The position numbers and the translations under genes are program-made. A stretch of DNA of 23,795 nucleotides from Chlamydiia bacterium. GTDB taxonomy: Bacteria > Chlamydiota > Chlamydiia > Chlamydiales > Parachlamydiaceae. Position 1 is the stretch's first letter, and every line of letters starts with the position of its first letter. The notes beneath the pieces were generated by a model that was given only the letters and a program-made list of their open reading frames with translations, was not told the origin of the DNA and ran no database searches. Below are positions 1-18,255 of this stretch, piece after piece. The stretch covers positions 1 through 23,795 of the forward strand of contig JBBSJT010000024.1 in assembly GCA_038257035.1 (NCBI GenBank). The letters run 5' to 3'.

Positions 1-138
1 GGATATTCAGGATCGCTCCGCTTCGCTTCGCTGGCCAAGATCAGGCAGGATAATATCAATCTCTAGTATATCCTTAAGGTTGATATTATCCTGCCTGATC
101 TTGGCCAGCGAAGCGAAGCGGAGCGATCCTGAATATCC
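1..138. repeat. Long palindrome (CAGGAT-module family), truncated by the window edge
   Basis: 1-59 is the exact reverse complement of 80-138, with a 20-nt loop. Homologous to the hairpin at 8369-8543. Confidence 0.95.
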
Positions 139-198
139 TGAAAAAAAATCATAAACTTTATAAAGAAAAAACTACCCCCTCTTTTCCTCTCTTGCTTT

Positions 199-223
199 TC
201 TCTGTGCCCTCTATGTTTAAAAA
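199..223 (-). repeat. Orphan half-element of the modular palindrome type (CACAGAG-like units)
   Basis: Minus strand reads TTTTTAAACATAGAGGGCACAGAGA, the same T-run + AAC + 8-9 nt ...AGAG unit layout as the arm at 17875-17900. No partner arm inside the window. Confidence 0.45.
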
Positions 224-244
224 GAAGTTCAACTTTCAAGGCCT

Positions 245-892
245 CTAAAGGTCGAAGTTGAAGATGTCAAACCAGATGGCGGCAAGCAAAAATGAGCCAA
301 AAGCAATCGGTCCATAAGGTGCATAATGTCCCACGTACAAAGTATAAGCAGAGATTGCTAATAAAATGAGCGGTGGTAACAATTTTTTGAGGCCAAGGCG
401 TCTGTTTGTTAAAAAAATTGAGATAATTGCAAAAGAAATTCCAAGAAGCCAACCATAAGATCCAGCTAAACTAAAAGCTGAACCGGATCCGCCAATGATC
501 GGGTCCGTATAAAGAAGTTGCACAATATTTTTTGTACTTTCAACATCAATATTTGGATGATGATTTGGTAAATCGAGAATATAGCCAACAGCAATTCCTG
601 CAGTTGAATCAAAAACAAGGTAGCAAACTGCAAATAACCAAATAAAAAATTTGCTTACAATGCCAAAAAAATTGTTTTGACGAAAAGTTAAAAGCATTGC
701 CGCAAGGGCCACTGCTCCGAATAAAAAGGATTGCAAAATATGAAGTTCCTTCCACCAACTGGACATATGATGCAGTCCTTCGTAAACATTTTTTGAAAAT
801 CCTGATGGATGATTCCACTCCAAGAGGACAAGTAAAAAAGGAACAACCATCATAACAAATCTTCTAAACCAGATAAATAAAACTTTTTCCAT
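245..892 (-). CDS. Hypothetical multi-pass membrane protein
   Basis: 215-aa ORF with about 6 hydrophobic segments. No family recognised. Confidence 0.75.
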   Translation of the reverse strand: MEKVLFIWFRRFVMMVVPFLLVLLEWNHPSGFSKNVYEGLHHMSSWWKELHILQSFLFGAVALAAMLLTFRQNNFFGIVSKFFIWLFAVCYLVFDSTAGIAVGYILDLPNHHPNIDVESTKNIVQLLYTDPIIGGSGSAFSLAGSYGWLLGISFAIISIFLTNRRLGLKKLLPPLILLAISAYTLYVGHYAPYGPIAFGSFLLAAIWFDIFNFDL

Positions 893-1035
893 GATTAAAC
901 CACCATTTTAATAAAGTTAACAAATACCAAATATAAAGATTAATCTAAAATGTTTTATTAAGATCTTGATTAAATAGGTGAGTTTGTGCAAAATAGGAGT
1001 GTAAAATGTGTAATACTTAAAAAAAAAGGAATATC

Positions 1036-1362
1036 ATGAAATCAATATACGCTCTATTAACGCTTGCTTGTTTATTTACTTTTGCTTCAACAACAAATTT
1101 AGAAGCAAGACACCATACTCACTTTGTTACTCGAACTTACTTTGCTCCTGCGCCACAATATGCTGTGCAATATTACCCTCAGCCGGTTTATGTTCAGCAA
1201 CCAGTTTACGTGCAACAACCGGTTTACGTGCAACAGCCCGTTCAAACTGTTGTTTACAGCCAACCTGTTTGCCGCCAAGTAGTTGTGCGTGAGCGATGCA
1301 ATCCTGCAGCCGGTTTGATCACTTCATTTGCCTTAGGCTTAGGACTTGGTTTACTTCGATAA
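1036..1362 (+). CDS. Small exported protein with QQPVYV repeats and a hydrophobic Gly-rich C-terminus
   Basis: AAGGA RBS, signal peptide MKSIYALLTLACLFTFASTTNLEA, and 18-bp tandem repeats at about 1180-1242. Confidence 0.8.
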   Translation: MKSIYALLTLACLFTFASTTNLEARHHTHFVTRTYFAPAPQYAVQYYPQPVYVQQPVYVQQPVYVQQPVQTVVYSQPVCRQVVVRERCNPAAGLITSFALGLGLGLLR

Positions 1363-1377
1363 GTCATAAAAAATTTA

Positions 1378-1419
1378 ATCAAAATCGGGTTAATATTATA
1401 ATATAGGCCTGATTTTGAT
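1378..1419 (+). terminator. Stem-loop downstream of 1036..1362, possible terminator
   Basis: ATCAAAATCGGGTT ... GGCCTGATTTTGAT inverted repeat 16 nt after the stop codon. Confidence 0.45.
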
Positions 1420-1466
1420 CGATCGAACCCCTGGGCTTTGACGAAGTTTTCCGGATTTACAGTGTT

Positions 1467-1630
1467 CTAGTACATCATGTCGTTTAAATTGATGGGTAAT
1501 AGCTTTAAATTTTGCCTCTAGTTTAAGAATTAAATTTCAATCCATGCATTGTTGTAGGTCTGAATTTAATTTTTAAAATAGAGGTGAAAGGAAAGTAGTA
1601 CCTATCAGTTTAGATGACATGGTGTACTAG
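1467..1630. mobile_element. Palindromic MITE-like element with CTAG at both ends
   Basis: CTAGTACATCATGTCGTTTAAATTGATGGGTAATA pairs with TAGTACCTATCAGTTTAGATGACATGGTGTACTAG. A second inner stem spans about 1510-1588. CTAG at 1467-1470 and 1627-1630 may be a target duplication. Confidence 0.75.
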
Positions 1631-1631
1631 C

Positions 1632-1960
1632 ATGCCAACAATAGGAAGCAACCTAATGAAACGTTTGAACACTTAAGCAGATAATGTCTTAACCCACATT
1701 CCGCAGAATTTAAAAAAATTGATATTTCACAAATCAGATCTTCAAACAAAGATTACCTTCTAAATAATCCAGTATTATATAGAAGAATTATTCGATTAGA
1801 AGAGTTCTGATCTAAATGAAATTAAAGATGGACCGGTTAAAAAAAACTTTTTCAATCATAGATTCTTATGAATTTGATGCAAAGCTTATTTCAACAAAAT
1901 GTAGATCAAAACTCTTGTTATCTATACGAGTTGCCATCATAGAAGAGGCCCTACAGTTAC
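1632..1960 (+). pseudogene. Decayed copy of the 5' part of the fibre-protein gene (3318..5147)
   Basis: Collinear DNA similarity to about 3295-3750, including the RBS (ATGCCAACAA.AGGAAGCAAC), TTCCGCAGAATTTAAAAA.ATTGATATTTCA and GATTCTTATGAATTTGATGCA. Contains deletions and frameshifts. ORF 1816..2046 retains IIDSYEFDA. Confidence 0.85.
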
Positions 1961-2067
1961 AATTGCAAAAGGTTTTAACCTCTTTTCCGGAGGGTAATGG
2001 GAAACCCGACAGCACAGGGGGATGCATTTCTGCTTGCAGGAGTTAATTTTTTGTACCGTAGCCTTTA

Positions 2068-2229
2068 GGCCAATGTCATTAACTTAAAGAAATTTTTATG
2101 ACACTGCGAACGCCAATCTCAATTGCTTTGCTCCTCGTTAATATAGCGACAGATATTAACTCGTCGCAAATCAATTGATCTTAGCATTCTCGTTGTCCTA
2201 TAATTTTTCTTAAGTTAACGACATTGGCC
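2068..2229. mobile_element. 162-bp palindromic MITE-like element with TTTA direct repeats
   Basis: TIR GGCCAATGTC(A/G)TTAACTTAA matches at 19/20, and imperfect symmetry continues to the centre. TTTA at 2064-2067 and 2230-2233. Confidence 0.8.
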
Positions 2230-2329
2230 TTTAGGCTGGCTAACATCCTTTAAAAATGCTATTTCTGCTAAGCATCGCTAATAGTTCGACGCATAATCCA
2301 GAAATTAATACATCTCTATGTGTAACTAA

Positions 2330-2785
2330 TTATTTCTTTACTATTTCTAATATTTCTTCCGCCTTTTTAGATTTATTATTTAATTCATTAAAGTCTCCGC
2401 GCAAAATTTTAAGAGCATATTTTTCCCAATCGATTTCCTTTCTAGTTCTAACATTTAAAGCTCTAAAAATAGGAAGAGGGGGACACCATCCTTGAACTGC
2501 ATGTTGAAAAAGAAAAATAAGGACAATAGAAGGGAGAAATAGCCAATAAGTATTAACAAATGCTCCCAGTAATACTCCTATGAATGCCAAAATTGAAGCA
2601 TTTGTTTCTAGCCATCGCTCAATACTCCATTCATTTTCAATAGTTCTTATCCTATTACTAATTTCCTGATTACTTCTTTCTGAATAATTTTGAATGCTTT
2701 TTAGGATTTTTTGATCAATAGCTGCATTTGAAGAAGTAGAAGTATGAGAGCGAACTCTATCATCATTTTCTAGGTTCATAAACAT
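2330..2785 (-). CDS. DUF2892 / YgaP-like membrane protein
   Basis: EWSIERWLETNAS, two TM segments, QHAVQGWCPPLPIFRALNVRT and EKYALKILRGDF match my recollection of this family. Confidence 0.75.
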   Translation of the reverse strand: MFMNLENDDRVRSHTSTSSNAAIDQKILKSIQNYSERSNQEISNRIRTIENEWSIERWLETNASILAFIGVLLGAFVNTYWLFLPSIVLIFLFQHAVQGWCPPLPIFRALNVRTRKEIDWEKYALKILRGDFNELNNKSKKAEEILEIVKK

Positions 2786-2834
2786 CCTTATGTTTAATTT
2801 ATAAAATCAAAAATAATTTTTAATGATCTTTTGG

Positions 2835-2960
2835 GTTTTGCATCTCAATGCGTTAACCCTTTTTAAGCACTTATGGTATTCCTCTACAACCCATTGTCTT
2901 CTCTTTTCCATCTCTAACTACCATTCGTCGTAAAGATCGTTGACTCAGTCTTTTACAAAA
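2835..2960 (-). pseudogene. Possible IS4-family (IS50/Tn5-like) transposase remnant
   Basis: Minus strand reads ...KRRQWVVEEYHKCLK, then after a frameshift G*RIE. This resembles the Y-x2-R-W-x-I-E-E-Y-H-K-x-L-K-x-G-C-x-I-E motif. Confidence 0.45.
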
Positions 2961-3317
2961 ATCTATTGACTATCAAGGTTCTGGCCTACCTATATTCTTT
3001 GTAGTCTAAAAACAATAAAAAGCAAAGCCTTAAATGAAACGAATGCCAGTGAAAAACCAAACTTAACCCTTTGAAATAATCAGACAGATGACAAAAGAAA
3101 ATGATTCCGAAGAATGTAAGTATCATCTCTTAAACATACCTTTTTTAAGCGTACAAAACATAATTCAATAAACGGGAGTTACGTTTTGAGTATTTTCATT
3201 TTATTTTCTTGTTAACCCTAACGCTCTCCCCTTTTTAATGTCAAAAAATTTATTGAAAATATTTATTTGACAAGGTATGACTATGCTCCAAGTAATGCCA
3301 ACAAGAGGAAGCAACTA

Positions 3318-5147
3318 ATGAAAAATTTTGAACGATTAAGACTCACATTATCTCTAATTATCTGTGGATTGTGTTTAAATCCACTTTCCGCAGAATTTAA
3401 AAACATTGATATTTCAGAAATCAGATCATTCAACAAAGATGAACTTCTAAATATTCCACTTCTAGATAGAAGAATAATTCGATTAGATGAGTCAGACAAA
3501 CAGTTAACTGATCTAAATGAAGTTAAAGATGAACCCATTAAAACACTTATCAACAATGGATTATTATCTTTGGTTTGGGAAGATCAGGAAAAAACATTTA
3601 TAATCATCGATTCTTATGAATTTGATGCAGAATTGCTTTCAAATAATGATTTCGATGAAACCTTAAAATTAAACTTTGAATTTCTTGGAGCAACTGATTA
3701 CGCATGTCATAATAGAATAGAAAAAAAAGGAGCCACCGGTCCGACAGGTGCTACGGGAACTACCGGAGGAATCGGTCCTACAGGTAATACCGGCCCCGGT
3801 ACTACCGGTCCTACAGGTACCACCGGTCCTACAGGTAGCACCGGACCTACAGGCACTACCGGACCTACAGGCACTACCGGTCCTACAGGAAACACCGGTC
3901 CAACAGGTGTGGGATTGACCGGCGCTACAGGTACAACGGGTCCAACAGGTACACAAGGTTTATTAGGACCTACTGGTCCAACAGGAACCGTTTCAGAAAA
4001 TGCCTGGCTTTTGACAGGTAATGCAGGAACTACTCCTCCAACTAATTTTGTTGGTACAACAGATAACCAACCACTTGTCATAGGTGTCAACAGCATACCT
4101 TCGGTACGTTTTACAGAAACAAGTCAAATTGAACCTCTTAATAGTTTAGCCTCTGTTTATGTGGGAAATGGGGCTGGAGCTTTAAATGTAGGAACCAATA
4201 ATACATTTATTGGCTTTGAAGCGGGTGACGTTAATACAGCCGGCTCTAGCAATACTGCCTTAGGTCATTTTGCACTTACTGAAAATACAACAGGCAACAG
4301 TAACACCGCAATTGGAGCCTCTTCCCTTCGCAATAATAATATCGGATTCAACAATAATGCTTTGGGCATAAATTCCCTTTTAAATAATATCAGCGGCAAT
4401 AATAACACTGCCATAGGAAATGGCACCCTTGGCAATGTTACAACAGAAACTAGCAACGTAGGTCTTGGAACAGGAGCTAATGTTTTTGCAGGTGCTAATA
4501 ATGCTACAGCTCTTGGCCAATCAACAATTGCCGCAAGTTCAGCTGTTGCTGTAGGATCCAGTGCTTCAGCTTCAGGACAAAGAGCAATAGCTATAGGGAG
4601 TTCGGCAGGAACAAGTACTGCAGGAAACAACGACACGATTTCCATAGGTAGTGTTGGGTTACCTGTCGCTGGGGTAATTAACATTGGAACACTTGGTACT
4701 AACATCGATTGTTACATTCAGGGAATTTATAATTCAACTGCGTTAGCACCCACCCTAGTCGTTAATATACAGGCAGACGGTAAGCTCACGACATTTACTT
4801 CCTCAAAAAGATTTAAAAATACAGTTAACACCCTATCAACAGATATTTCAAAAAAAATCTATGATATGCGTGTTGTTGAATTCTTTTATAATGGCGATTC
4901 TTCCAATAGAACTAATTATGGAATGATTGCAGAAGAAATGGAGCAAGTATTACCGGAAGTTGTTGTTTATGAGCCAGAATCTAATATTCCTTATAGTATT
5001 AGTTATCCATTAATTCAGCCGTTGATGATCGCTGAATTACAACAGCATGAAATGCAATTACAAAAGCAAAATGCAATCATTGCAAATCAGCAAAAGATTA
5101 TTGATTTGTTGATCGAAAGATTGGAAGCTTTAGAAAAGGCCATGTAA
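3318..5147 (+). CDS. Secreted trimeric fibre/adhesin-like protein: signal peptide, collagen-like GxT repeat, YadA-head-like beta-roll repeats, peptidase S74-like intramolecular chaperone and coiled coil
   Basis: GAGGA RBS before ATG 3318 (preferred over TTG 3267). Signal [25 protein letters not shown], (GPT/GTT)n, repeated NTA(L/I)G, C-terminal SSKRFK...YGMIAEEM...[13 protein letters not shown] and a heptad tail. Confidence 0.85.
3729..3989 (+). repeat. Collagen-like Gly-X-Thr coding repeat
   Basis: About 27 G-X-Y triplets, mostly GPT/GTT, with two interruptions (GP, GV). 9/18-bp DNA periodicity (ACCGGTCCTACAGG). Confidence 0.95.
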
Positions 5148-5156
5148 TTCCACACC

Positions 5157-5188
5157 GTGCGGGGTACCCCCGCACTTCTTCTTTTTTC
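5157..5188 (+). terminator. Rho-independent terminator
   Basis: GTGCGGGG-TAC-CCCCGCAC followed by a T-rich tail, 10 nt after the stop codon. Confidence 0.75.
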
Positions 5189-5224
5189 TGCCACTAAAAA
5201 AGTCTATGCTTACGTTAGCGTAGT

Positions 5225-6181
5225 CTAAAAGTCGTTGCCGTCCATGTTTTTTAATTGAGGTCTTAACTCATCCATTTTAGGCCCTATAAAAGTATAAAGC
5301 TTTTCATCAAAATAAAGCGAAAGATCAGGAAAACTTTTCTTAAGCCATATTCTAAATTTATAAGTCTTATTAAACATTTCCTGGGCTTGTACCTCAATGT
5401 CTTTATAACTTTCTTTTTGAAGAAATTGACCGACATCTATATGGATGGGCATTCCATCAAGAACTCCGGTGTTTTGCATTAAGGCATGATCATTATCACC
5501 AAGACCTCTGTTATATTCTGATACTAGGGTGTCAAAAAGAGTATCAAGTAATTTTTTTGTCTGATCCAGTTGACTCATTTTCATTTGTTTCTCGATCGTA
5601 TCTGTCAACATAAAGGCACGTTTTTGAATCAAAAATTCATAATCATCAATCGCTATATAATGTTCCATTCCCATTTTATCGGTAATTAAAACTTGTCTTT
5701 GTAAAGTATTTGTTTTATTTAAATGCACATATACAAGGCCGGTTTCAGATTTTAACTCATCATGGGCAATTTTCCAACTCTTGAAAATATTTTCTAATTT
5801 TATTCTTTTTTTCTCAATTTTCATCAGGCGATAATCATTCATGGCGGGAATAAATGAAAATAAATTAAGCCATTCTTGAGGTGTAAATCGCTGATATTTA
5901 AAAAATTTTAACACATATTTACCATCTTCGCTTGCAAAAACGTAAGATTGGCAACCTTTTCCAAGATATTCAAATTTTTGTGATAAAATAGAATCGATCT
6001 GATTTTTTTCTTCCGGTGTGATACTTTTTGTCTCAAATCTTGGATCAAATTTTAAATTAGAGGCAATATTTGAAGTTGTAAAGCCATCGGTCACATAATA
6101 ATAGACTCGACCAACACCATAAATACCACTTATGGCTAAACAAAACCAAATAGATAGTTTAAAAAAAGTATTTTTTGACAT
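5225..6181 (-). CDS. Membrane-anchored hypothetical protein with protein-kinase-like motifs
   Basis: N-terminal hydrophobic helix, then LGKGCQSYVF, YVLKFF, DNDHALMQN and IHIDVG in kinase order. Start is ATG 6181 or GTG 6190. Confidence 0.7.
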   Translation of the reverse strand: MSKNTFFKLSIWFCLAISGIYGVGRVYYYVTDGFTTSNIASNLKFDPRFETKSITPEEKNQIDSILSQKFEYLGKGCQSYVFASEDGKYVLKFFKYQRFTPQEWLNLFSFIPAMNDYRLMKIEKKRIKLENIFKSWKIAHDELKSETGLVYVHLNKTNTLQRQVLITDKMGMEHYIAIDDYEFLIQKRAFMLTDTIEKQMKMSQLDQTKKLLDTLFDTLVSEYNRGLGDNDHALMQNTGVLDGMPIHIDVGQFLQKESYKDIEVQAQEMFNKTYKFRIWLKKSFPDLSLYFDEKLYTFIGPKMDELRPQLKNMDGNDF

Positions 6182-6256
6182 ATAACTCACTTATTTTTTT
6201 TAAAAAAGTGCATCATACTGATTTCAAACTTTTTATTCCAACGTAATCGGTTTTTA

Positions 6257-6265
6257 TGCTATAGT
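6257..6265 (+). promoter_or_regulatory. Candidate extended -10 element for fabI
   Basis: TGCTATAGT about 33 nt upstream of the ATG. Pattern match only, in AT-rich DNA. Confidence 0.3.
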
Positions 6266-6297
6266 GGATTACTTAATCAATTGATAACGGAGGTTTT

Positions 6298-7200
6298 ATG
6301 CTAGCAATTAATCTTAAAGGAAAGAAAGCCTTTATTGCGGGAGTTGGCGACGATAAGGGATATGGCTTTGCTATTGCAAAAGCTTTAGCTGAAGCCGGAG
6401 CTGAAATCATCATCGGTACATGGACACCTATTGCAAAAATATTTTTAACGAGTCTTGAAAACGGAAAATTTGATGAATCGCTAAAATTATCTGATGGTTC
6501 TATCATGAAAATTTCCAAAGTTTATCCTCTGGATGCCACATTTGATACAATGGAAGATGTTCCGCAAGAAATCCGCGAAAATAAACGCTACAAAGATGTT
6601 ACAGAATATACAATTACCGAAGTGGCAGCAGCAATTGGTAGAGATTTTGGAAAGATAGATATTTTCGTTCATTCCCTTGCAAATGCTCCTGAAGTTCAGA
6701 AACCACTTCTTGAAACAACAAGAAAAGGGTACCTTGCAGCTTTAAGCTCTTCCTCTTATTCATTCGTTAGTTTATTGGCACATTTAGGCCCATTCATGAA
6801 TACAGGTGGCGCTGCCCTTTCATTAACGTATCTTGCCGGTGAAAGAATTATTCCGGGTTATGGTGGTGGAATGAGTTCAGCAAAAGCTGCACTTGAAAGC
6901 GACACACGCGTATTAAGTTATGAAGCCGGCCGTAAATGGAACATCAGAGTCAATTGCATTTCAGCCGGACCCTTGGGAAGCCGTGCTGCAAAAGCCATTG
7001 GTTTCATCGACAAGATGATAGACTATTCATTTATAAATGCTCCTATTTCAAAAGATTTAAAAGCCGAAGAAATTGGTGCTGCTGCTACATTTTTATTATC
7101 TCCTTTAAGTTCTGCTATTACAGGTGCAATTATTCATGTCGATAACGGTTTGAACAGCATGGGTGTAAGTCTTGACAGCCCCATATTTATGGAAAATTAA
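6298..7200 (+). CDS. fabI: Enoyl-ACP reductase (chlamydial/plant-type)
   Basis: [45 protein letters not shown] and [25 protein letters not shown]. Confidence 0.97.
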
Positions 7201-7230
7201 GAAAAAAAATAAAACAAGGAATGTTAATCA

Positions 7231-8190: not shown

Positions 8191-8315
8191 AAAACATTTG
8201 TAAACCCAAAAATATTAAAAATACGATTGAACTGAAAAGAAATATATATAAAATTTTCAATTTCAAAAAAGCTATATCATATATTGGATTTTTTTTCTCG
8301 AAGTAGAACAGTATA

Positions 8316-8604
8316 CACTGGTGTTACTTCAAACTGAAAAATTTAGATCTCTACAATTTATCACGTCATCGATTTTTAACAGGATATGCAGGATCGCTCC
8401 GCTTCGCTTCGCGGCAGGATCGCTAAAAGCGGCAGGATATTATCAACTTCTAGGATATATTAGAGGTTGATAATATCTTGCCGCTTTAGCGATCCTGCCG
8501 CGAAGCGAAGCGGAGCGATCCTGCATATCCTGTTAAAAATCGAAGATGTTATAATAAGTAGTTTTGAGAACATTGCAAATTTTCACTTCCAAGTAGCATC
8601 AGTA
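8316..8604. mobile_element. TA-flanked MITE-like shell (~30-bp TIRs) carrying a CAGGAT-family hairpin
   Basis: TA|CACTGGTGTTACTTCAAACTGAAAAATTT ... AAATTTTCACTTCCAAGTAGCATCAGTA|TA. Same TIR type as 17843-18113. Confidence 0.7.
8369..8543. repeat. Long palindrome (CAGGAT-module family)
   Basis: About 78-bp near-perfect arms, TCGATTTTTAACAGGATATGCAGGATCGCTCCGCTTCGCTTCGC... and its reverse complement. The loop is homologous, in inverted orientation, to the loop of 1-138. Confidence 0.95.
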
Positions 8605-8615
8605 TATACTCTTAT

Positions 8616-10061
8616 CTAAGAAACCTCTCCATGTAATGTAAGGGTGGCTTTGATGATGCAGTCGGTGTCGCGTCTGATGGTGCGCAAGAAAATCGAGTAA
8701 TCAAAAGCCGCAAAACGATCTTTGCCCTTAGTTGCAATTTGTGAGGGTCGGTTTCCACGCATGAAATGGCCCATGAAATGACCGTTACCCTTTACAATTT
8801 CAAAAAGCAGATCAAATTTAAAACCATCAAGAATTACTTCAACTTTTTCTCCGATTTGAAATGTTGTAGCTTTTATCCCTTCAATCCTAACATCCGTTTT
8901 ATCAAAAAGATCAAAGTAAAAAGCCACTTCGCGACATTCCTCCTTATCTTCAAGCTCCGGAACTTCGGCCAAAGAAAAAAGAAATTCATGGGTTTTGTTT
9001 TTCTCCGTAAAAGCAATCTTTTGACTATTTGACCCTTCAATTGTCAAAGAATGTAACCTGTTAACATTGCCAAAATTAAGTTTATAAGGAGCAAATCCTT
9101 TGTCTTGAGATGCTTTATTAGAATCTTGCTCAATAAAGGCAAAATTATAATTTTCAAACTTAAAGCACTTATACGATTGCTCGTTAATCTTACCTTGCCA
9201 AAAAAATGGCAAATGATTGTCGATTTTGTATTCGCAAGGCTGAATGAGTGAAGCATGAAGATGAATAACACTTAAGGTTAAAGCACGCTTTGAGAACTTT
9301 TTTGTTAAATAGCCCATGAATAGATCGTATAAAGTAACTTCCGGCTCAAAACCTGCCTGATATTCTAAAATATTAGGGCCTGCATAGCAATTTAAATCCG
9401 GGTGCCAAGTTTTGTTAAGATGATCCAAAAACTTTTGACTAAATTTCATGTCAACCATCTGTGAGGCAATAATTAAATCACCCAAGTGTTTTGGTATAAA
9501 CCAGTCTCTTGTTACATCGTTAAATTCAACAAGCCTTTTTTCTCCGTCGTTTTTAAGCTCGTTTATATTAAAAAGGTTGCCCACTGCTTGCAAAGCTGCT
9601 GCCAATTTGATGCGCATAAAATAGGGCGGATTTTTTTCGGTTGAAATTTTAATGCTATAGTTAACAAGGTCAAGTAATGCCTTTTCCAAACGCTCCCTTA
9701 AGGGGTTTCCGAGAATTTGATGAAAGTCCTTGTAAATCCAATATAAAGGTGCAATTAAGGAGATTGCCAAGTAATGATCTTTGCATTCCGGATATTCATG
9801 CAAATAGACAGGAAACTGTCCGTCAGAACTTGCAAAATGGAGAAGCTTTTCAACTAAAACCCTTGCTCTTGTGATGTTTTCAACCGTACGTGTTTTAAAA
9901 AGGGAAAGTGCAAACAAAAAATTCTCTAAAACAGGAATTGTTAAATGTACATCATCTTGTAAGGCATGATACTTTAAGTGAAGAAAATCTGTTTGCAAGC
10001 TAATGCGTTTTTCCCCCGCATTTAAACAAAGATCGTTAATTTTTTTTAAATATTCATCCAT
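8616..10061 (-). CDS. Conserved-looking hypothetical protein (~481 aa)
   Basis: Long ORF. Start moved to ATG 10061, just after the upstream SDR stop, making it the third gene of the folB operon. No function recognised. Confidence 0.8.
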   Translation of the reverse strand: MDEYLKKINDLCLNAGEKRISLQTDFLHLKYHALQDDVHLTIPVLENFLFALSLFKTRTVENITRARVLVEKLLHFASSDGQFPVYLHEYPECKDHYLAISLIAPLYWIYKDFHQILGNPLRERLEKALLDLVNYSIKISTEKNPPYFMRIKLAAALQAVGNLFNINELKNDGEKRLVEFNDVTRDWFIPKHLGDLIIASQMVDMKFSQKFLDHLNKTWHPDLNCYAGPNILEYQAGFEPEVTLYDLFMGYLTKKFSKRALTLSVIHLHASLIQPCEYKIDNHLPFFWQGKINEQSYKCFKFENYNFAFIEQDSNKASQDKGFAPYKLNFGNVNRLHSLTIEGSNSQKIAFTEKNKTHEFLFSLAEVPELEDKEECREVAFYFDLFDKTDVRIEGIKATTFQIGEKVEVILDGFKFDLLFEIVKGNGHFMGHFMRGNRPSQIATKGKDRFAAFDYSIFLRTIRRDTDCIIKATLTLHGEVS

Positions 10062-10065
10062 CGAT

Positions 10066-11136: not shown

Positions 11137-11199
11137 TTTAACCTCTTGCTTGCTTCTTAAAAATAGTTTATGATCCGCATCTTTAACTTATGGGTTCTT

Positions 11200-11652: not shown

Positions 11653-11662
11653 AGAGATTAAA

Positions 11663-11836
11663 ATGAGTTATTTAAAATTGAAAAAACATGTTTTTTTGAT
11701 TGTTGTACTGTGCAGCCTCACAAGCTGCTACCGCATGCCAACAGATCATGATTACTCGCTTGTGCCTAATGTGAACAACCCTGACGTCACAAGAGGCAAG
11801 CCGGGCAGCTTAAGTGCCCCCAGCATGGCCTTTTAG
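11663..11836 (+). CDS. Small lipoprotein (57 aa)
   Basis: ATG 11 nt after the previous stop. Basic N-region, hydrophobic core and lipobox LTS-C. Confidence 0.7.
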   Translation: MSYLKLKKHVFLIVVLCSLTSCYRMPTDHDYSLVPNVNNPDVTRGKPGSLSAPSMAF

Positions 11837-11892
11837 GACCATAGCCTCTTATATTAATACGAAGAAACCGCTGGAAGCTCACAAGCTTTTAG

Positions 11893-12021
11893 ATTTTTTA
11901 ACGCAAAGAAGCTGCAAAAGGCGCAAAGGCGCAAAGATAAAAAGATCTTTAAAAGTGTATAGAGTTTTTTTAATTCTTTGCGCCTTTGCGTCTTATTGCA
12001 GCTTCTTTGCGTTAAAAAAAT
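11893..12021. repeat. Long palindrome (CGCAAAG-module family)
   Basis: TTTTTTAACGCAAAGAAGCTGCAAAAGGCGCAAAGGCGCAAAGA ... TCTTTGCGCCTTTGCGTCTTATTGCAGCTTCTTTGCGTTAAAAAA. Related to 13932-14090. Confidence 0.92.
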
Positions 12022-12203
12022 ACCAACCTCAATAGATTCCTAGCGGTCTAAAATGTATTTACTGTCTTCGTGTTTAAAAACTCAGAAACTAAAGAAATAA
12101 TTATGCGTACGAATCAAGTGGATCGGATTATGCAGTCCAAGATGGCATTTGGGAGTGGTCAAGGAAATATATGCTGATTTTTGGATATTTTTTTTGAAAA
12201 TTG

Positions 12204-12232
12204 TTGCTATTCTTATGATTTTCATCTAAGAT
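12204..12232 (+). promoter_or_regulatory. Candidate sigma70/66 promoter for the csrA operon
   Basis: TTGCTA-N17-TAAGAT about 110 nt upstream of csrA. Pattern match only. Confidence 0.35.
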
Positions 12233-12340
12233 TGACAACTAATGCCCCACCCTGTCACATGAACGACAGATGGTATAAATAAAACTTGAGATTACACTCC
12301 AAGTAAAAAGAACATTAACTTTCTCTCATAGGCTTGATTT

Positions 12341-12607
12341 ATGTTAGTTTTAACAAGAAAAAGGGAAGAAAAAATTACAATCGGCAATAACCCCGGCATT
12401 GTAATTACAGTTTTAAAAATTCAAGGCGATAAAGTTTCTATAGGAATTGAAGCCTCACCTGACATACCTGTTTTTCGTACAGAGCTTCTCACACGAGAAA
12501 GACCTCAAAAAACCGAAACCGCTTCTCATAATCAAAGTGAAATCGCAATTGAAAGCTTACAAATCGATCTTGAAAAACAAAAACTTCATTTAAACCACAA
12601 AAATTAA
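12341..12607 (+). CDS. csrA: Carbon storage regulator CsrA with a C-terminal extension
   Basis: MLVLTRK..EKITIG...ITVLKIQGDKVSIGIEASPDIPVFRTEL. Confidence 0.92.
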   Translation: MLVLTRKREEKITIGNNPGIVITVLKIQGDKVSIGIEASPDIPVFRTELLTRERPQKTETASHNQSEIAIESLQIDLEKQKLHLNHKN

Positions 12608-12617
12608 GTAAGATCAG

Positions 12618-13106
12618 ATGAAAAAACCCTTTATTGAACTTAACTTAGAAAATCTACTTAAACATTTTAAGAAAACAAAAGAAAATGCAGTTTTACAAAC
12701 TGAGACCGATCAAATATTAATTACTGTTAAATTTGATAAAGTTGAATTTCCTCTATTTGTTCGTATCACAGAAACCCAAGATTTGCTACAATTGCTTGCA
12801 TTTTTCCCGTGTAACATCAAAGCGGGATGCGAATCTGACATGGCGCGTACCTTACACCTTTTAAACAAAGAACTTGATATTCCGGGATTTGGAATGGACG
12901 ATTTTAATGGTTTGGTTTTTTATCGCTGCATGATTCCTTGCCCTGATTTGCACTATCACGAAGCCGTCATCGATAAATACCTCGATGCTGTAAAAATGAT
13001 TTGTCAATCTTTTCTTCCCTTAATTTTTGCAATGAGTCAAGGAAACATGAAATTTTCAGAGATTTCAAACAAGCTTGGCGATTTAATGCAAACAGCAGAT
13101 AAGTAA
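12618..13106 (+). CDS. CesT/YbjN-fold type III secretion chaperone (CT260/Mcsc-like)
   Basis: ETDQI...FPLFVRI...LLQLL..FP...ARTLHLLNKELDIPGFGMD...VFYR. Adjacent to dnaQ, as I recall for C. trachomatis CT260-CT261. Confidence 0.8.
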   Translation: MKKPFIELNLENLLKHFKKTKENAVLQTETDQILITVKFDKVEFPLFVRITETQDLLQLLAFFPCNIKAGCESDMARTLHLLNKELDIPGFGMDDFNGLVFYRCMIPCPDLHYHEAVIDKYLDAVKMICQSFLPLIFAMSQGNMKFSEISNKLGDLMQTADK

Positions 13107-13110
13107 AAAA

Positions 13111-13824
13111 ATGACATTTAGACCTATATATTACGATACAGAAACCACCGGAATTAAAACCGACAGGGACCGTATTGTTGAACTTGCGGCTTATGATCCT
13201 ATCAACGATCGCTCATTTGAAATGTTAATTCATCCAGGCCTTCCAATTCCACCGGAAGTATCTGCCATTCATCATATCACGGATGAAATGGTTGCAAATT
13301 CCCCATCTTTTGCACAAGCTGCTGTTGAATTTGTAAAGTTTTGCGAAGGGAATGTTATTTTAATTGCCCACAACAATGATAATTTTGACTTACCCATGAT
13401 GCGAAATGAATTTGCCCGTCATCAAGTCATCATGCCGGCGGAATGGAAATTTTTAGACAGTTTAAAATGGGCAAGGAGGTACCGTCCTGATCTACCACGA
13501 CATACACTTCAATTTTTAAGAGAAATCTACGGCATTGCAGCAAATAATGCCCATAGGGCCTTGGATGACGTAAAAGTTCTTTATCAAATGTGTAGCCATA
13601 TGTTTGATGATTTGTCAATCGATGATATTTTCCTTTTAATCAACAAACCTTTTGATATTCTTCATATGCCTTTTGGAAAGTATCAAGGAAAACCCTTACA
13701 AGATGTCCCTGCAGATTATTTAAAGTGGCTTTTGGCTAACGGCGCACTCGACAAACCAGAGAATCAAGAACTTAAGCGCTGCTTCGGCAAACACCCCAAC
13801 TACCTCAGCCTCCTAAAATCATAA
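13111..13824 (+). CDS. dnaQ: DEDDh 3'-5' exonuclease (DNA Pol III epsilon-like) with a C-terminal MPFGKY domain
   Basis: YDTETTG, AHNNDNFD and HRALDD. C-terminal MPFGKYQGKPLQDVPADYLKW. Confidence 0.88.
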   Translation: MTFRPIYYDTETTGIKTDRDRIVELAAYDPINDRSFEMLIHPGLPIPPEVSAIHHITDEMVANSPSFAQAAVEFVKFCEGNVILIAHNNDNFDLPMMRNEFARHQVIMPAEWKFLDSLKWARRYRPDLPRHTLQFLREIYGIAANNAHRALDDVKVLYQMCSHMFDDLSIDDIFLLINKPFDILHMPFGKYQGKPLQDVPADYLKWLLANGALDKPENQELKRCFGKHPNYLSLLKS

Positions 13825-13873
13825 ACAGACTCACTTTCATCAAGATGGGAACTATTTTCCAAAGTGGTCTGTT
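13824..13873. other. Short inverted repeat after dnaQ (terminator or mini-element)
   Basis: AACAGAC(T)CACTTT ... AAAGTGGTCTGTT. Confidence 0.45.
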
Positions 13874-13876
13874 GAA

Positions 13877-14169
13877 ACCAGAAGAGCGCGAAGAAGCTCG
13901 CTTAAAAGCGTGAGAAGAAAAAAGTTAGTGTAGCTTTTTTTAACGCAAAGGCGCAAAGACGCAAAGAAGGACTTTGCTAAAATCTATTGCTACTAGTAAC
14001 CCTAGCAATATGCAAATATGAATAAAGTACGTTATAAAAATTAAATTTCGCTTTTCTTTGCGCCTTTGCGCCTTTGCGTTAAAAAAAGCTCTAATGGCTT
14101 TATATTTCCGCGCTTTTTTAAGCGCGCTTCTTCGCGTACCTTCGCGTCTTTCTTCGCGCTCTTCGCGGT
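13877..14169. repeat. Nested palindromes: outer CGCGAAG-module arms, inner CGCAAAG-module arms, innermost short IR
   Basis: Outer arms about 13877-13910 and 14110-14169. Inner arms 13932-13968 and 14054-14090. Innermost TATTGCTA/TAGCAATA at 13985-14010. Confidence 0.88.
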
Positions 14170-14242
14170 AAGATGGTCCACAAAAACTAGATACTAAAAT
14201 CTTCTCTGTGGTGAAAAATAATTAATGGGAAATAGGTGTGAA

Positions 14243-15046
14243 ATGCAGAAGACGAAATTGATGGGGATATTAAATGTTACCCCAGACTCATTCTTTGATC
14301 GAGGCGAGGCTTTTGATACAACTAAAGCCATTGAGAAAGGTCTTAGAATGTTTGATGAAGGAACTGATATTCTTGACATCGGTGGCGAATCGACGCGTCC
14401 CGGTGCGACTCCTGTAAGTGCTGAAGAAGAAATTTTGCGTGTTATTCCCGTAATTTCAGCGTTAAAGTCAAAAATTAATATCCCTATATCTATTGATACA
14501 ATGAAACCTCAAGTTGCTAAATTGGCAATTGATGCCGGAGCATCCATTATAAACGATGTAACAGGTTTTATAGATATTGAAATGGTTGAACTCGCAAAAA
14601 AAACGGGTGTCCAAATTGTAGTCATGCATATGCGAGGAACCCCCCTTAACATGCAAAATGATTTACATTATGAGGGTGGCATCGCTGAAGAAATCCTTGT
14701 TTTTTTTAAAGAGCGAACTACATTTTTAACATTAAAAGGGATTAAAAAAGAGCAGATTATTTTAGATCCTGGTATAGGCTTTGGAAAATCGGTTGCTGAT
14801 AATCTCAAAATCATACACAATTTGTCTAGGTTTAAGGAATTGGGGTTTGCCGTTTTACTTGGAATTTCACGTAAGTCATTTATGGGTAAGATTTTAAACA
14901 ATAAACCTTGCTCCTTATTGCCTGCAACAATTGGGTTGAACAGTGTCGCAATTATGAATGCTGTAGATATAATTCGTGTGCATGATATAAAAGAGCACCG
15001 AATGTTAATAGATTTAATGCATAATTATATGGAAGAAACAAAATAA
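14243..15046 (+). CDS. folP: Dihydropteroate synthase
   Basis: MGILNVTPDSF, DIGGESTRPG, DPGIGFGK, SRKSF and IIRVHD. ATG 14243 has an AGGTG RBS (alternative start 14225). Confidence 0.97.
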   Translation: MQKTKLMGILNVTPDSFFDRGEAFDTTKAIEKGLRMFDEGTDILDIGGESTRPGATPVSAEEEILRVIPVISALKSKINIPISIDTMKPQVAKLAIDAGASIINDVTGFIDIEMVELAKKTGVQIVVMHMRGTPLNMQNDLHYEGGIAEEILVFFKERTTFLTLKGIKKEQIILDPGIGFGKSVADNLKIIHNLSRFKELGFAVLLGISRKSFMGKILNNKPCSLLPATIGLNSVAIMNAVDIIRVHDIKEHRMLIDLMHNYMEETK

Positions 15047-15048
15047 GC

Positions 15049-15852
15049 ATGGAATTTTTTAGTTTGCTGGTTCCGACATTTGAAATATTGATCATGGCAA
15101 TCATGCTCTACTACCTGCTGTCGTTTTTTTGGAATACGCGCGCAATGGATTTAGTGCTTGGTATTTTTTCTGTTTTAGCCTTATATACCCTCTCTATTTG
15201 GTTTCATCTTCCTGTTTTACAAAAACTGATGCTTTATTTTGTTAATGTTGCAGTGATTGCCCTTCTGATTATTTTTCATCCAGAATTAAGGCTTGCCTTG
15301 TCAAAACTTAGCGTTAAAGGAAAAAAATATCGGGAAATCACAGAGTTTGACAAATTTCTTGATAACTTAGGTCTAACAACTTACCGCCTTTCTGAAAAAA
15401 AAATCGGGGCTTTAATCATTTTGGAAAACCAAGATTCCCTAGAAGAGTATGCTAATAAGGCCGTAATTCTCAATGCTGATTTTTCATCCGAACTTTTAGA
15501 AACGATTTTTTCAACTACAACACCCTTACATGATGGTGCTGTAATTATCCGAGGCACAACCATTTTATCTGCTGCTACAATTTTACCCCTTGCAGATGAA
15601 AGTTCTCAGATTACAAAATCAATGGGAACACGCCACCGTGCAGGCCTTGGCATAAGCCAGCTCACCGATGCCCTTGTGATTGTGGTCTCTGAAGAAACAG
15701 GGAAGGTTTCAATTGCAAGAGATGGTATTATGACTCGTGGCGTTAAACTCGATCGCTTCAAAGGGATTGTACGAAGTATTTTCACCCCTCCAAAAACTGC
15801 TATAGAAACGAGTATGGATGCATTAGGTAGGTTTAAGCAATGGAATCGTTAA
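15049..15852 (+). CDS. cdaA: Diadenylate cyclase CdaA/DacA
   Basis: Three N-terminal TM segments, PLHDGA, GTRHRA and VVSEETG. Confidence 0.95.
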   Translation: MEFFSLLVPTFEILIMAIMLYYLLSFFWNTRAMDLVLGIFSVLALYTLSIWFHLPVLQKLMLYFVNVAVIALLIIFHPELRLALSKLSVKGKKYREITEFDKFLDNLGLTTYRLSEKKIGALIILENQDSLEEYANKAVILNADFSSELLETIFSTTTPLHDGAVIIRGTTILSAATILPLADESSQITKSMGTRHRAGLGISQLTDALVIVVSEETGKVSIARDGIMTRGVKLDRFKGIVRSIFTPPKTAIETSMDALGRFKQWNR

Positions 15853-17096
15853 TCGCAAGACTTTTTCTTCAAAATTGGCAACAAAAATTAGTGGCACTTA
15901 TCAGTGCCCTTGTAATTTGGTTTTTTGTTAGTCAATCGATTATTGAAACAAAAATCATCCCAAGGGTCCCTATACGCATCGTTAACTTGCCACGGGATAA
16001 AACAATTTTGGGACTCAATCCAAATGGTTTATTATCTAAAAGGATTACCCTTACCCTGACAGGTACAAAAGATGTGATTCACACCATTGAAACCGGGGAT
16101 CTTGAAGTTTTAATTGATGCCTCAATAATCGATCATGATGATTGGGTGCTTCAGATCAATAAAAAAAATCTTGTTAGCCTTAACCCATCCATTGATTTAA
16201 AAAACCACATACGTCAAGTCTCACACACAGAAAACGTTATCAGGCTCCGTCCTTTAATCACCGAAAAAGTACAGATCACAATTCAGGAGCCCACCGGAAA
16301 ACCCCCTGCAGGATATGAATTTTTGGATGTCTGGCCTCACCAGTTGATGCAAACATTAAGTGGTGCTGAAGAGGAAATCCAACATCTAAAAATTACAGGT
16401 CTTGAAGTTACTTTTGACTTAAATCAAATTACAGCAGCCGATCTTGATGCGATTAAAAACACAAGAGATCATTTACAAGATGATGAAGTCAGTTTTACCG
16501 TCCCTAATAAATGGAAAAAAATTCTTATTCCTTTTCATGAGAATGCTCTTGAAGACTTCAATGATCCTGACGCACAATATTTAAGGTTGGATTTTTTAAG
16601 AAAAGAAGTGTTGCCCGTTAAAAATATTATTCCCGTCAGAATTTTTTACCCCTTTAAATTTAGCGAAACACTCAATCCTAAAACTTACACACTTTTGACC
16701 GAAGCACCTATTGAAGAGAAAAACCATTTAACGTTTTTGACAACTCCACTTTTTGCAAAAGGTGTCAGCAGGCTTTTTCTAGATATCATCAAAGAAAATA
16801 TGGAGATTACAATTATTGCAGCACCAAAAAGCGAAAGAGATCTTTTGCAATGGACCATTGATGTTGCAGATGTTCATGACTTGGAAGATATTTATGTCGC
16901 TTTTCTAATTTCGAGCATGAAACAGTCAAAAAATAATCAGGATTCAATTTCTAAGAATCGCGAGCAGTTGCTAAGACAACGCTTTAGAGATTACTTGCAA
17001 AAATTAACACTTTATAGAAATCCTGAAGATAAACTTTCCCTGGAAGCCAAACTTGAACAGAATGTCATCAAGGTGACAATTGATAATTTAAACTAA
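15840..17096 (+). CDS. ybbR: YbbR/CdaR-like regulator of diadenylate cyclase
   Basis: NWQQKLVALISALVIWFFV anchor followed by VPIRIVNLP. Overlaps the end of cdaA. Confidence 0.82.
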   Translation: MESLIARLFLQNWQQKLVALISALVIWFFVSQSIIETKIIPRVPIRIVNLPRDKTILGLNPNGLLSKRITLTLTGTKDVIHTIETGDLEVLIDASIIDHDDWVLQINKKNLVSLNPSIDLKNHIRQVSHTENVIRLRPLITEKVQITIQEPTGKPPAGYEFLDVWPHQLMQTLSGAEEEIQHLKITGLEVTFDLNQITAADLDAIKNTRDHLQDDEVSFTVPNKWKKILIPFHENALEDFNDPDAQYLRLDFLRKEVLPVKNIIPVRIFYPFKFSETLNPKTYTLLTEAPIEEKNHLTFLTTPLFAKGVSRLFLDIIKENMEITIIAAPKSERDLLQWTIDVADVHDLEDIYVAFLISSMKQSKNNQDSISKNREQLLRQRFRDYLQKLTLYRNPEDKLSLEAKLEQNVIKVTIDNLN

Positions 17097-17099
17097 TCT

Positions 17100-17813
17100 A
17101 TGCCAAAAGAACGTTTTTTTCTCGAATCCCCTCTTAAAGAAGGTGAACTGATCTCTATTCGTGACGATGAGTTTCATCATTTAAATGTGATGAGGCCAAA
17201 AGTCAAACAACAAATCGAGATTGTTAACGGTAACGGTGAGCTTGGCATTGCCACACTTGAAACTTTAGAAAAAAAACAAGCAACACTAATTATTGAAAAA
17301 GTAATTAGAGAACCTTTTGAAACCTTTAAAGTCATCTTGGCGCAAAGCTTTTGCCGTCCAAATCGACTAGATTTTATTCTAGAGAAAGCAACGGAGCTTG
17401 GTGCTACAGACATCTGGCTATTTCCAGGAGTGCATAGCGAAGCGAAGGATTTGAACGATCATAAGCTTGCCCGCATGCGTGCCATTACGATTTCTGCCAT
17501 GAAGCAATGCGGAAGGCTTTATCTTCCAAAAATCACTTTAAAACCAACCTTGGAACATTTTGAAAAAAGTCCCTATTCATCTTTTTTTGGGGATGTGGAT
17601 CAAAATGCTCCAAACTTTCTTGAATGTTGGAAAAAGGAAAGTCAAAATGAAGGTGTTTTATTTTTTATTGGTACAGAATCTGGTTTTAGCGATGCAGAAA
17701 CAAAAAGACTTTTGAGCCTTGGTGCAAAAGGCGTTAAAATTAACAAAAACATCCTACGCACCGATACTGCCGCCATCACTGCCTTGAGCTTAATCGGCAG
17801 TAGGCTTTGTTAG
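17100..17813 (+). CDS. rsmE: 16S rRNA m3U1498 methyltransferase
   Basis: HHLNVMR, ILEKATELG, AMKQCGR, IGTESGFS and NILRTDTA. Confidence 0.95.
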   Translation: MPKERFFLESPLKEGELISIRDDEFHHLNVMRPKVKQQIEIVNGNGELGIATLETLEKKQATLIIEKVIREPFETFKVILAQSFCRPNRLDFILEKATELGATDIWLFPGVHSEAKDLNDHKLARMRAITISAMKQCGRLYLPKITLKPTLEHFEKSPYSSFFGDVDQNAPNFLECWKKESQNEGVLFFIGTESGFSDAETKRLLSLGAKGVKINKNILRTDTAAITALSLIGSRLC

Positions 17814-17842
17814 TACTTTCAGAGATAAGTAGAACCAGTATA

Positions 17843-18113
17843 TACTGATGCTACTTGAAAGTAAAAAGTTTCAGATTTTTTCAACGCAGAGGCGCAGAGA
17901 CGCAGAGACGCAGAGAAGCGCGCTAAAGCGCGAAAAGAATAAGAAAAGTTAATCGTTTTTCGTGGCTTAGAAAAGAATTTAATTTGTTGTTTTTCGCGCT
18001 TTAGCGCGCTTCTCTGCGCCTCTGCGTTGAAAAAATCATATACTTTTAAATAAGTTTCTTAACAGCATACTCTTAATTTTTTTTAAATTTTTCACTCAGA
18101 AGTAGAACCAGTA
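17843..18113. mobile_element. TA-flanked MITE-like shell (~30-bp TIRs) carrying a CGCAGAG-family hairpin
   Basis: TA|TACTGATGCTACTTGAAAGTAAAAAGTTT ... AAATTTTTCACTCAGAAGTAGAACCAGTA|TA. Confidence 0.75.
17874..18037. repeat. Long palindrome (CGCAGAG-module family)
   Basis: GATTTTTTCAA(CGCAGAG unit x4)AAGCGCGCTAAAGCGCGAAAA ... TTTTCGCGCTTTAGCGCGCTT(CTCTGCG unit x2)TTGAAAAAATC. Confidence 0.92.
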
Positions 18114-18117
18114 TATA

Positions 18118-18255
18118 TACTTTCTACTCTCAAATGAAAAAGAAATTAGACCTCTACAATCTATAACAACTTGCATATCCTGAAAAATTTAAGGTGCTAA
18201 ATTAATAGATTTATTAGTATTGCAAGTTTTAGTTTTAAAAACTGTAGAAAAATAT
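18118..18255. mobile_element. Degenerate copy of the 8316-8604 element lacking most of the hairpin
   Basis: ATTAGACCTCTACAATCTATAAC resembles 8341-8364, TGCATATCCTG equals 8522-8532, and ATTGCAAGTTTT resembles 8572-8583. Confidence 0.55.

Follow-up and report, generated by a model that had tools for sequence, protein, structure and literature searches.

Miniature inverted-repeat elements of bacteria include the Correia and RPE elements and the IS630-derived transposable elements of the miniature inverted-repeat kind (MITEs), the intervening sequences of 23S rRNA contain an internal open reading frame (ORF) for the S23p or four-helix-bundle protein (PF05635), and the short tandemly repeated repetitive (STRR) heptamer arrays of filamentous cyanobacteria consist of intergenic 7-nt units, with several types per genome. 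A further system for comparison comprises the repetitive extragenic palindromes (REP and REPIN) and their REP-associated tyrosine transposase, RAYT (PMC3116915, PMC2817692, PMC3733652), where the REP stem is described as short and GC-rich, one of its ends bearing a conserved tetranucleotide, GTAG or CGTC (PMC3733652). In this study, we analyzed a 23,795-nt stretch of DNA from a Chlamydiia bacterium of the Parachlamydiaceae (contig JBBSJT010000024.1 of assembly GCA_038257035.1), the whole of which is referred to as the window; it is contig C24 of the draft genome G000 (2,366,241 bp in 210 contigs, 36% G+C, 95.8% complete) and contains five long intergenic palindromes and one orphan arm. It is well supported that these window hairpins are gene-less copies of an element whose full form carries a gene for a GxxExxY protein, and on balance we consider it probable that they belong to a family of palindromic selfish elements whose copies would be mobilized by the GxxExxY nuclease of the full form.

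In the literature consulted, neither palindromic repeats of chlamydiae nor repeats flanking GxxExxY genes are described, and 'GxxExxY' is named only in passing. Where one survey lists PF13366, its function is given as 'Unknown' with 'multiple transfers' (PMC3424549).

The present system works like a REP/RAYT or MITE system, yet it lacks the defining features of both. As with REP/REPIN and RAYT, high-copy intergenic palindromes far exceed in number a small gene that is present once or a few times and is flanked by the same repeats, several repeat families, each with its gene variant, occur in one genome, and the copies would relate to each other as non-autonomous to autonomous forms. However, the gene here encodes a predicted PD-(D/E)xK nuclease of ~125 aa, whereas RAYT is a Y1, IS200-like transposase, and the arms consist of tandem 7-mers over 40-80 nt with a T-rich A(A/C)C tip, whereas REP stems are GC-rich and 20-40 nt long. 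Since none of the seven Y1 (RAYT) loci examined is flanked by tandem-unit arms and the arms bear no GTAG/CGTC tag, the REP-like assignment of the initial annotation does not hold in the strict sense. The MITEs resemble the window elements in being short, gene-less intergenic copies that are bounded by inverted repeats and can nest, and two window shells even have 16-nt terminal inverted repeats (TIRs) and TA. In contrast to MITEs, the whole element and not its ends alone is a near-perfect palindrome, the gene between the arms is that of the nuclease, and for the tandem-unit cores, whose flanks continue the palindrome, neither a target duplication nor an end-matched DDE transposase was found. 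A DDE-derived MITE was rejected for the cores because no full-length insertion sequence with matching ends occurs in the assembly, a draft that may lack insertion sequences. A 23S rRNA intervening sequence also has a long inverted-repeat stem with a small ORF in the loop, and its transcription is tolerated since the stem is excisable, but all five window elements lie between protein-coding genes, no Rfam family (rRNA included) matched within the window, and the four-helix-bundle gene of the genome (G000:C166) has no tandem-unit arms around it. The likeness to STRR arrays is one of general description and lies in intergenic arrays of tandem 7-nt units with several sequence types per genome. A CRISPR-like array was rejected by eye, the units being contiguous and mirrored.

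Palindromes of the window and of the genome

All five palindromes and the orphan arm listed in the initial annotation were recovered at their places by an inverted-repeat scan, sequence inspection and folding (Table 1). Each hairpin was folded as single-stranded DNA and compared with 60 dinucleotide shuffles, giving z values from -7.4 to -29.1. The positions held, while some of the bounds had to be redrawn: 8369-8543 and 17874-18037 are the cores of larger composites, and 13877-14169 consists of two nested elements. The unit families are lettered A (CGCAAAG), B (CGCAGAG), C (CGCGAAG) and D (CAGGAT).

Table 1. Palindromic elements in the window (positions are those of the whole stretch; dG, folding free energy).
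Feature	Position	Strand	Details
CAGGAT-unit (family D) palindrome core, truncated by the contig start	1..138	.	69-nt arms, 94% complementary; dG -79 kcal/mol, z -19.8
Lone right arm of a CACAGAG-unit element	180..228 (about)	.	units CTCTGTG / CTCTATG, then TTTAAAAA
Composite, TA-flanked outer shell around CAGGAT core 8369-8543	8314..8606 (293 nt)	.	TIRs TACACTGGTGTTACTT / AAGTAGCATCAGTATA
Family A hairpin with CGCAAAG units, in the gap between the FliO-like gene and csrA	11894..12019	.	dG -53 kcal/mol, z -13.0
CGCGAAG-unit (family C) element, left arm shortened, complete CGCAAAG hairpin in its loop	13883..14169	.	outer arms 13887-14136
Inner hairpin with CGCAAAG units, in the loop of the family C element	13935..14085	.	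z -7.4
Composite, TA-flanked shell around CGCAGAG (family B) core 17874-18037	17841..18115	.	shell TATACTGATGCTACTT ... AAGTAGAACCAGTATA; ends fixed by nine-copy alignment
Collapsed D-type copy	18086..18190	.	shell end and left outer segment (cf. 8300-8370) running straight into the final ~15 nt of a D right arm (GCATATCCTGAAAAA)

The truncated core at the contig start carries the mirrored GC-rich insert CGCTCCGCTTCGCTTCGC, and its segments are 81-97% identical to those of the core 8382-8539. The partner of the lone CACAGAG arm would have been lost or would lie beyond the contig start; genome-wide, 22 CACAGAG arms (11 left and 11 right) have the same T-run and AAC/ACC tip with a purine-rich tail. 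The second D element contains a palindrome at 8351-8561 with 77-nt arms that are 92% complementary (dG -107 kcal/mol, z -29.1), and the region 8300-8620 folds with a dG of -118 and a z of -21. The hairpin between the FliO-like gene and csrA combines a T6-AAC tip, the insert AAGCTGCAA and an AT-rich loop with perfect or near-perfect arm segments of 24 and 20 nt. The region 13877-14169 folds with a dG of -82 kcal/mol (z -8.5), and a second composite with an A hairpin in a C element, of the same build, is present at G000:C31:14170-14532. For the CGCAGAG composite, the region 17864-18047 folds with a dG of -64 kcal/mol (z -11.1), the genome copies are 76-91% identical, and the core has four units in the left arm and two in the right, a difference consistent with slippage. 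The shell motif also matches at 18100-18115, within the collapsed D-type copy.

The scan of the whole genome (arms ≥18 nt and ≥85% complementary, span ≤450 nt) yielded 797 long inverted-repeat pairs; a third-order Markov copy of the genome that served as control gave 13. Merged, these pairs give 479 elements, one per 4.9 kb, and are no peculiarity of the window; 29 of the elements overlap ORFs and 25 touch contig ends. Tandem 6-mers following runs of at least five T were found at 883 sites in the genome and at 253 in the control. When a left arm with at least two perfect units and a right arm no more than 450 nt away were required, 237 hairpins in the genome obeyed the grammar of a T-run, A(A/C)C and tandem units, and all five window elements conform to it. 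These comprise 89 hairpins with the unit CGCGAAG, 50 with CAGGAT, 36 with CAGTGAG, 28 with CGCAAAG, 21 with AAAGGAC and 13 with CGCAGAG, while the CACAGAG arms are missed by the rule because their partners are degenerate. A dispersed repeat system in several unit alphabets, as had been proposed from the window, is therefore present across the genome. The proposed order of a T-run followed by tandem units also stands, although the tip is AAC, ACC or AC, varying by family, rather than AAC alone. At least four T within the 12 nt before the left arm were counted in 21/31 arms of family A, 15/18 of B, 87/93 of C, 57/90 of D, 38/47 of E, 14/29 of F and 5/11 of G.

Copies within the genome are closely similar, the best identity of a copy to another copy having a per-family median of 80-93% and reaching 100%. 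The flanks of the tandem-unit cores carry on the palindrome. Nesting is found elsewhere in the genome as well, with CGCAAAG hairpins lying within an outer CACGAAG/CACAAAG layer or within CGCGAAG loops. Head-to-tail pile-ups of same-grammar hairpins were seen at the loci L088 (Geomonas, 143-nt period) and L157 (genome G115), which suggests insertion beside existing copies. At least 10 further palindromic families of the genome have no tandem-unit grammar, e.g., TATAAAGCAGGCCTACAGCCTGC...CCTAGGGCGTTGCCCTAGG, AATTTGGAGTGCGGT... and GGGGTCAGGCTTTACAATATTACAGT (e.g., C1:9569-9667, C1:4241-4385 and C1:43534-43731), and single-linkage clustering of the genome palindromes gave 70 clusters.

Two genomes of the same genus, G001 and G002, whose flanking genes show ~70% nucleotide identity to those of G000, were compared at the orthologous sites. 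The window elements are absent from both at all three comparable sites, as the initial annotation had anticipated for mobile repeats: the gap between the FliO-like gene and csrA is without the CGCAAAG hairpin, the 55-98 nt upstream of folP contain nothing comparable, and the ≥60 nt downstream of rsmE are without the element. The region 8300-8620 on the fabI side is not comparable because the neighboring genes in these relatives are not homologous. The high identity of copies within the genome, together with their absence in the relatives, indicates that the elements spread, at least in part, after the divergence from G001 and G002. Public sequencing runs entered as assembled contigs. In the soil-metagenome run X1, which represents the window best, the hairpin 11894-12019 occurs at 4-9x the depth of its flanks, with the locus covered in pieces, and in run X2 the fliO-csrA gap of a related organism is replaced by 353 unlike letters and is uninformative on an empty site. 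The run contigs, which cannot show absence of a hairpin, contained no junction bypassing one, and the sole RNA contig (X15) spans csrA alone.

GxxExxY genes and their arms

A Pfam/NCBIfam profile search of the whole genome detected two GxxExxY genes (PF13366, TIGR04256), one four-helix-bundle gene and 7-9 Y1_Tnp genes. None of the window proteins is a nuclease or transposase by gene annotation and hidden Markov model (HMM) search, in agreement with the earlier view that no candidate enzyme lies in the window. The first GxxExxY gene (G000:C7:1100-1507) is located inside a CGCGAAG palindrome, between the left arm TTTTTTTACCGCGAAGACCGCGAAGAAAGACGCGAAG and a mirror-image right arm. The left arm has a T7-ACC tip and GC-rich sub-hairpins as in the gene-less copies and ends ~80 nt before the start codon, and the right arm begins just past the stop codon. 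When this cassette was compared with the genome by BLAST, the arms matched up to ~175 places, while the gene is single copy and the homology ends at the gene borders. Upstream of the second gene, at G000:C17, lies a degenerate CGCAAAG arm, and 20 nt downstream of the gene there is a complete CGCAAAG hairpin.

A total of 30 GxxExxY loci were returned from the survey, of which L159, L161, L165, L169, L172 and L179 were dropped before alignment for internal stops, truncation or a contig edge, and L166 duplicates L140. The flanks were read for 25 intact chlamydial homologues, and same-grammar arms were found at 19 of them, the right arm usually starting 3-30 nt past the stop codon; an automatic scan for arms was positive at ~14 of 29 loci. 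The link between such repeats and GxxExxY genes, which the initial annotation had suggested, is borne out, whereas the proposed neighborhoods of Y1_Tnp and four-helix-bundle genes are not: the 7 Y1_Tnp loci examined (9 genome matches) are all free of tandem-unit arms within 1.5 kb, and the four-helix-bundle gene has none. One Y1_Tnp (RAYT-like) gene, G000:C29:8800-9907, is bounded on both sides by a separate REP-like family, TACCGGTGGTTTCACCACCGG..., with nine elements, indicating that the genome also has a classical REP/RAYT-type system.

The units around the chlamydial cassettes are CACAGAG, CGCAAAG, CACAAAG, CGCAGAG and CAGGAT. CACAGAG cassettes occur in 10 genomes, CAGGAT cassettes in G124 and G149, a CGCAGAG cassette in G109, and CGCAAAG cassettes at G000:C17, in G007 and in a Prevotellaceae metagenome-assembled genome (MAG), while no GxxExxY cassette with CAGTGAG or AAAGGAC units was seen in the loci examined. 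The unit type clusters on the nuclease tree, with nine changes against a shuffled mean of 13.9 and none of 200 shuffles as low. In the Prevotellaceae MAG, the GxxExxY gene, whose protein is 40% identical to that of G000, stops 1 nt short of a CGCAAAG right arm that bears the same GTT and A-run tip, and the retention of the CGCAAAG unit at this protein identity suggests that the units are constrained. The GxxExxY protein is ~125 aa long, and G24, E27, Y30, D67, K79 and Q91 are invariant in 25 sequences, with E77 nearly so; judged from the alignment, these residues make up a predicted E...D...ExK nuclease site. The AlphaFold model (pLDDT 95.5) likewise predicts a PD-(D/E)xK nuclease fold, and no solved structure was found for the nuclease by sequence at E ≤ 1.

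The distribution of the units and of the gene was compared in 151 chlamydial genomes for unit counts and 150 for GxxExxY matches, the counts being descriptive. Tandem CGCRRAG units are very patchy. G000 has 374 matches and a genome of the same genus has 8; two genomes of another family reach 321 and 43, two from other genera of the family of G000 reach 162 and 90, and the 1.0-1.3-Mb genomes of the family f12 have 0-1. A GxxExxY match was obtained in 46 of the 150 genomes and in none of the 26 genomes of f12, and all 15 genomes with at least five CGCRRAG matches have one. Similarly, all 13 genomes with CACAGAG or CACAGAG-like cassette arms have at least eight tandem CACAGAG matches, as against 112 of the 151 genomes with none, and 24 of the 27 genomes with at least eight CACAGAG matches carry the gene.

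Beyond the phylum, the exact 17-mer AACGCAAAGRCGCAAAG gave at least 123 matches in a bacterial genome collection of 596 Gb, which is about chance level (chance estimate ~140). Of these, 48 among the matches listed are inverted pairs forming CGCAAAG hairpins, from Myxococcota (Sorangium), Acidobacteriota, Planctomycetota, Verrucomicrobiota, Desulfuromonadota (Geomonas) and chlamydial MAGs, and three of the listed matches, one of them weak, have a GxxExxY reading frame in the 300-nt flank.

Proposed mobilization of the palindromes and its alternatives

The anatomy of the elements, their abundance, the linkage of gene and arms, their co-distribution and the lack of orthologous conservation are direct observations. 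From the anatomy and the co-occurrence, we infer that the nuclease binds and cleaves DNA and mobilizes copies in trans. An arm is built of a T-rich tip, A(A/C)C and then 2-5 tandem purine-rich 7-mers at 8-9 nt spacing, and the full form has the gene for the ~125-aa GxxExxY PD-(D/E)xK nuclease in the loop, with the left arm just upstream of the start codon and the right arm beginning within ~30 nt past the stop codon. The nuclease may bind the tandem units of the alphabet around its gene, probably in the form of several protomers, and may cut the hairpin or cruciform formed by the palindrome. Gene-carrying and gene-less copies would then be copied or moved to new intergenic sites, mostly just past the 3' ends of genes, while the unit number might shift by slippage and copies might insert into the loops of one another. 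As a tentative and rather doubtful extension, the GxxExxY proteins might be the enzymes of a pan-bacterial class of mobile palindromes, in which different clades read different 7-mer units and resolve the extruded hairpin or cruciform for excision or copying. The gene-less hairpins, hundreds in a genome, would be their non-autonomous progeny, and the mechanism would be distinct from those of Y1, DDE and serine or tyrosine recombinase enzymes.

Several points weigh against mobilization by the nuclease. Only two genes stand beside 237 hairpins, and in the 95.8%-complete assembly only CGCGAAG and CGCAAAG have a gene, the alphabets CGCAGAG, CAGGAT, CAGTGAG and AAAGGAC being without a cognate gene or remnant. 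Six of the 25 chlamydial GxxExxY genes are without arms, and many gene-carrying genomes have few arrays of the two unit types examined. The co-occurrence counts overstate the support because kin genomes are not independent. The unit type is also not simply tied to protein identity, as a 46%-identical paralogue has another unit and the 40%-identical Prevotellaceae protein has CGCAAAG. The structural matches of the model (Cas4 by Foldseek, E 4.6e-4, TM 0.51; the BpuSI nuclease domain, Z 8.2, SSO0001 (Cas4), Z 7.8, and Hjc, Z 6.6, by VIA-align) are generic for the PD-(D/E)xK fold with no subfamily prominent, and a Z value below 8 may reflect no more than a shared arrangement. The shell around two window cores could have been moved by a different, conventional transposase.

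The shell is one ground for an alternative in which the hairpins are ordinary miniature inverted-repeat elements of a conventional transposase that is missing from the draft, with GxxExxY as a passenger or frequent neighbor. Alignment of nine CGCAGAG copies showed that the element extends ~45 nt past the T-run on each side and ends exactly at a 16-nt inverted repeat, TATACTGGTKCTACTT. With at most two mismatches, this motif has 101 matches in the genome against 4 for the reversed control, and it bounds ~50 elements in the genome and two in the window, where it forms the shell around the core with CAGGAT units (8314-8606) and around that with CGCAGAG units (17841-18115). It forms 15 inverted pairs of 173-617 nt, of which eight have TA on both sides as in IS630/Tc1-mariner-type elements, although the TA flank is possibly part of the repeat itself because TA is its own complement. 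Insertion sequences could moreover be unassembled, given the 210 contigs and the 25 elements at contig ends. On the other hand, no DDE_3 (IS630-type) transposase matched in the assembly, a draft that may lack insertion sequences, and neither the consensus flanks of families C and E nor the two gene cassettes contain the shell. Genome-wide, a left and a right arm stand 0.3-4 kb apart in only six cases, one of which is the GxxExxY cassette and none of which has a transposase with matching ends. A conventional transposase also fails to explain the arms at 19 of 25 GxxExxY loci across chlamydial families and those in other phyla, all of them shell-less, and we regard this alternative as unlikely. 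An IS3-like ORF pair lies in the loop of an AAAGGAC-unit hairpin at G000:C4:32354-33819 and resembles a later landing of an insertion sequence in a palindrome.

The direction could also be reversed. The palindromes would then spread, or arise, by other means, and GxxExxY would act as a homing-type nuclease gene, cutting gene-less hairpins with the cognate unit and being copied into their loops by repair. The constant position of the gene in the loop between intact arms is compatible with such a history, as are the end of cassette and gene-less homology right at the gene borders, the existence of gene-free hairpin families, and a unit type that tracks the nuclease clade as expected for a target-specific homing enzyme. 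Yet there is one gene copy for ~90 family C targets, whereas active homing should fill more, and no gene remnants turned up in hairpin loops when the whole genome was searched in six frames with an HMM (two intact genes, next best E 0.45). Because the spread of the hairpins themselves is also left unexplained, we find this scenario quite improbable.

The placement of the elements bears on a third alternative, in which the hairpins are selected, immobile host signals at gene ends, such as terminators, mRNA 3' stabilizers or RNase III sites. On a crude ORF map (84% coding), the convergent gaps (218 in the genome) contain 69 of the 237 grammar hairpins, the tandem gaps (876) contain 99 and the divergent gaps (263) contain 26, with 11 inside ORFs and 32 at contig edges, and 71 of the 99 tandem-gap hairpins are closer to the upstream stop codon (median 65 nt vs 134 nt). 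This 3'-end bias would suit host signals, and so would an arm similarity slightly higher within than between copies (excess 0.02-0.10 by an alignment-free measure) and the two-sided changes at 8 of 22 consensus pairs in family E, against 0-4 in shifted controls; the covariation consensus was usable for family E alone, as the other family-wide alignments were poor since unit numbers differ. The bias is equally expected from purifying selection against insertions in promoters and genes. Intrinsic terminators were rejected, in accordance with the initial annotation, since on either strand the stem comes after the T-run and before the A-run, the reverse of the terminator order, none of the five hairpins was called terminator-like, and the 18 terminator-like sites are no enrichment over 15.8 ± 4.6 in shuffles. 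With the elements missing from three comparable sites in same-genus relatives, patchy in the phylum, and present as near-identical, nested and collapsed copies, immobile host signals are a highly improbable explanation.

Remaining features of the window and significance

The genes of the window are ordinary and include those for FabI-like, FolB, CsrA, RNase T, FolP, CdaA, RsmE and GlgC proteins, among others. Just upstream of the CGCAAAG element, a small GC hairpin at 11871-11892 was scored terminator-like because the T-run of that element acts as its tail. An imperfect palindrome of another type, without tandem units, is located at 2060-2237 (85-nt arms, 76% complementary, z -8.5), and a small AT-rich palindrome at 1515-1584 is a member of a five-copy genome family. 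The CAGGAT and AAAGGAC units contain repeated GGA motifs (window 8380-8445 and 12341-12607) and the window encodes a CsrA homologue; any connection between these motifs and binding by CsrA would be purely speculative. The 5' part of the collagen-repeat/Peptidase_S74 gene (3267-5147) is duplicated upstream at 78-92% identity (1632-1894 and 3295-3642), with the rest of the gene absent, and a transporter of the Sulf_transp family at 19358-20609 (- strand) is split into two overlapping ORFs that correspond to the N- and C-terminal halves of the profile.

The association described here ties PF13366/TIGR04256, a large family with its function listed as unknown, to a concrete DNA substrate and gives it a testable role from sequence. 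If the nuclease moves the hairpins, this would be a second system of the REP/RAYT kind with another enzyme fold and a legible correspondence of 7-mer units to enzyme clades. Since the nuclease tree intermixes chlamydial families, the elements may serve as markers of recent lateral exchange among amoeba-associated bacteria. In environmental chlamydiae, the palindromes account for a substantial fraction of both intergenic DNA and contig breaks (479 in 2.37 Mb, 25 at contig ends).

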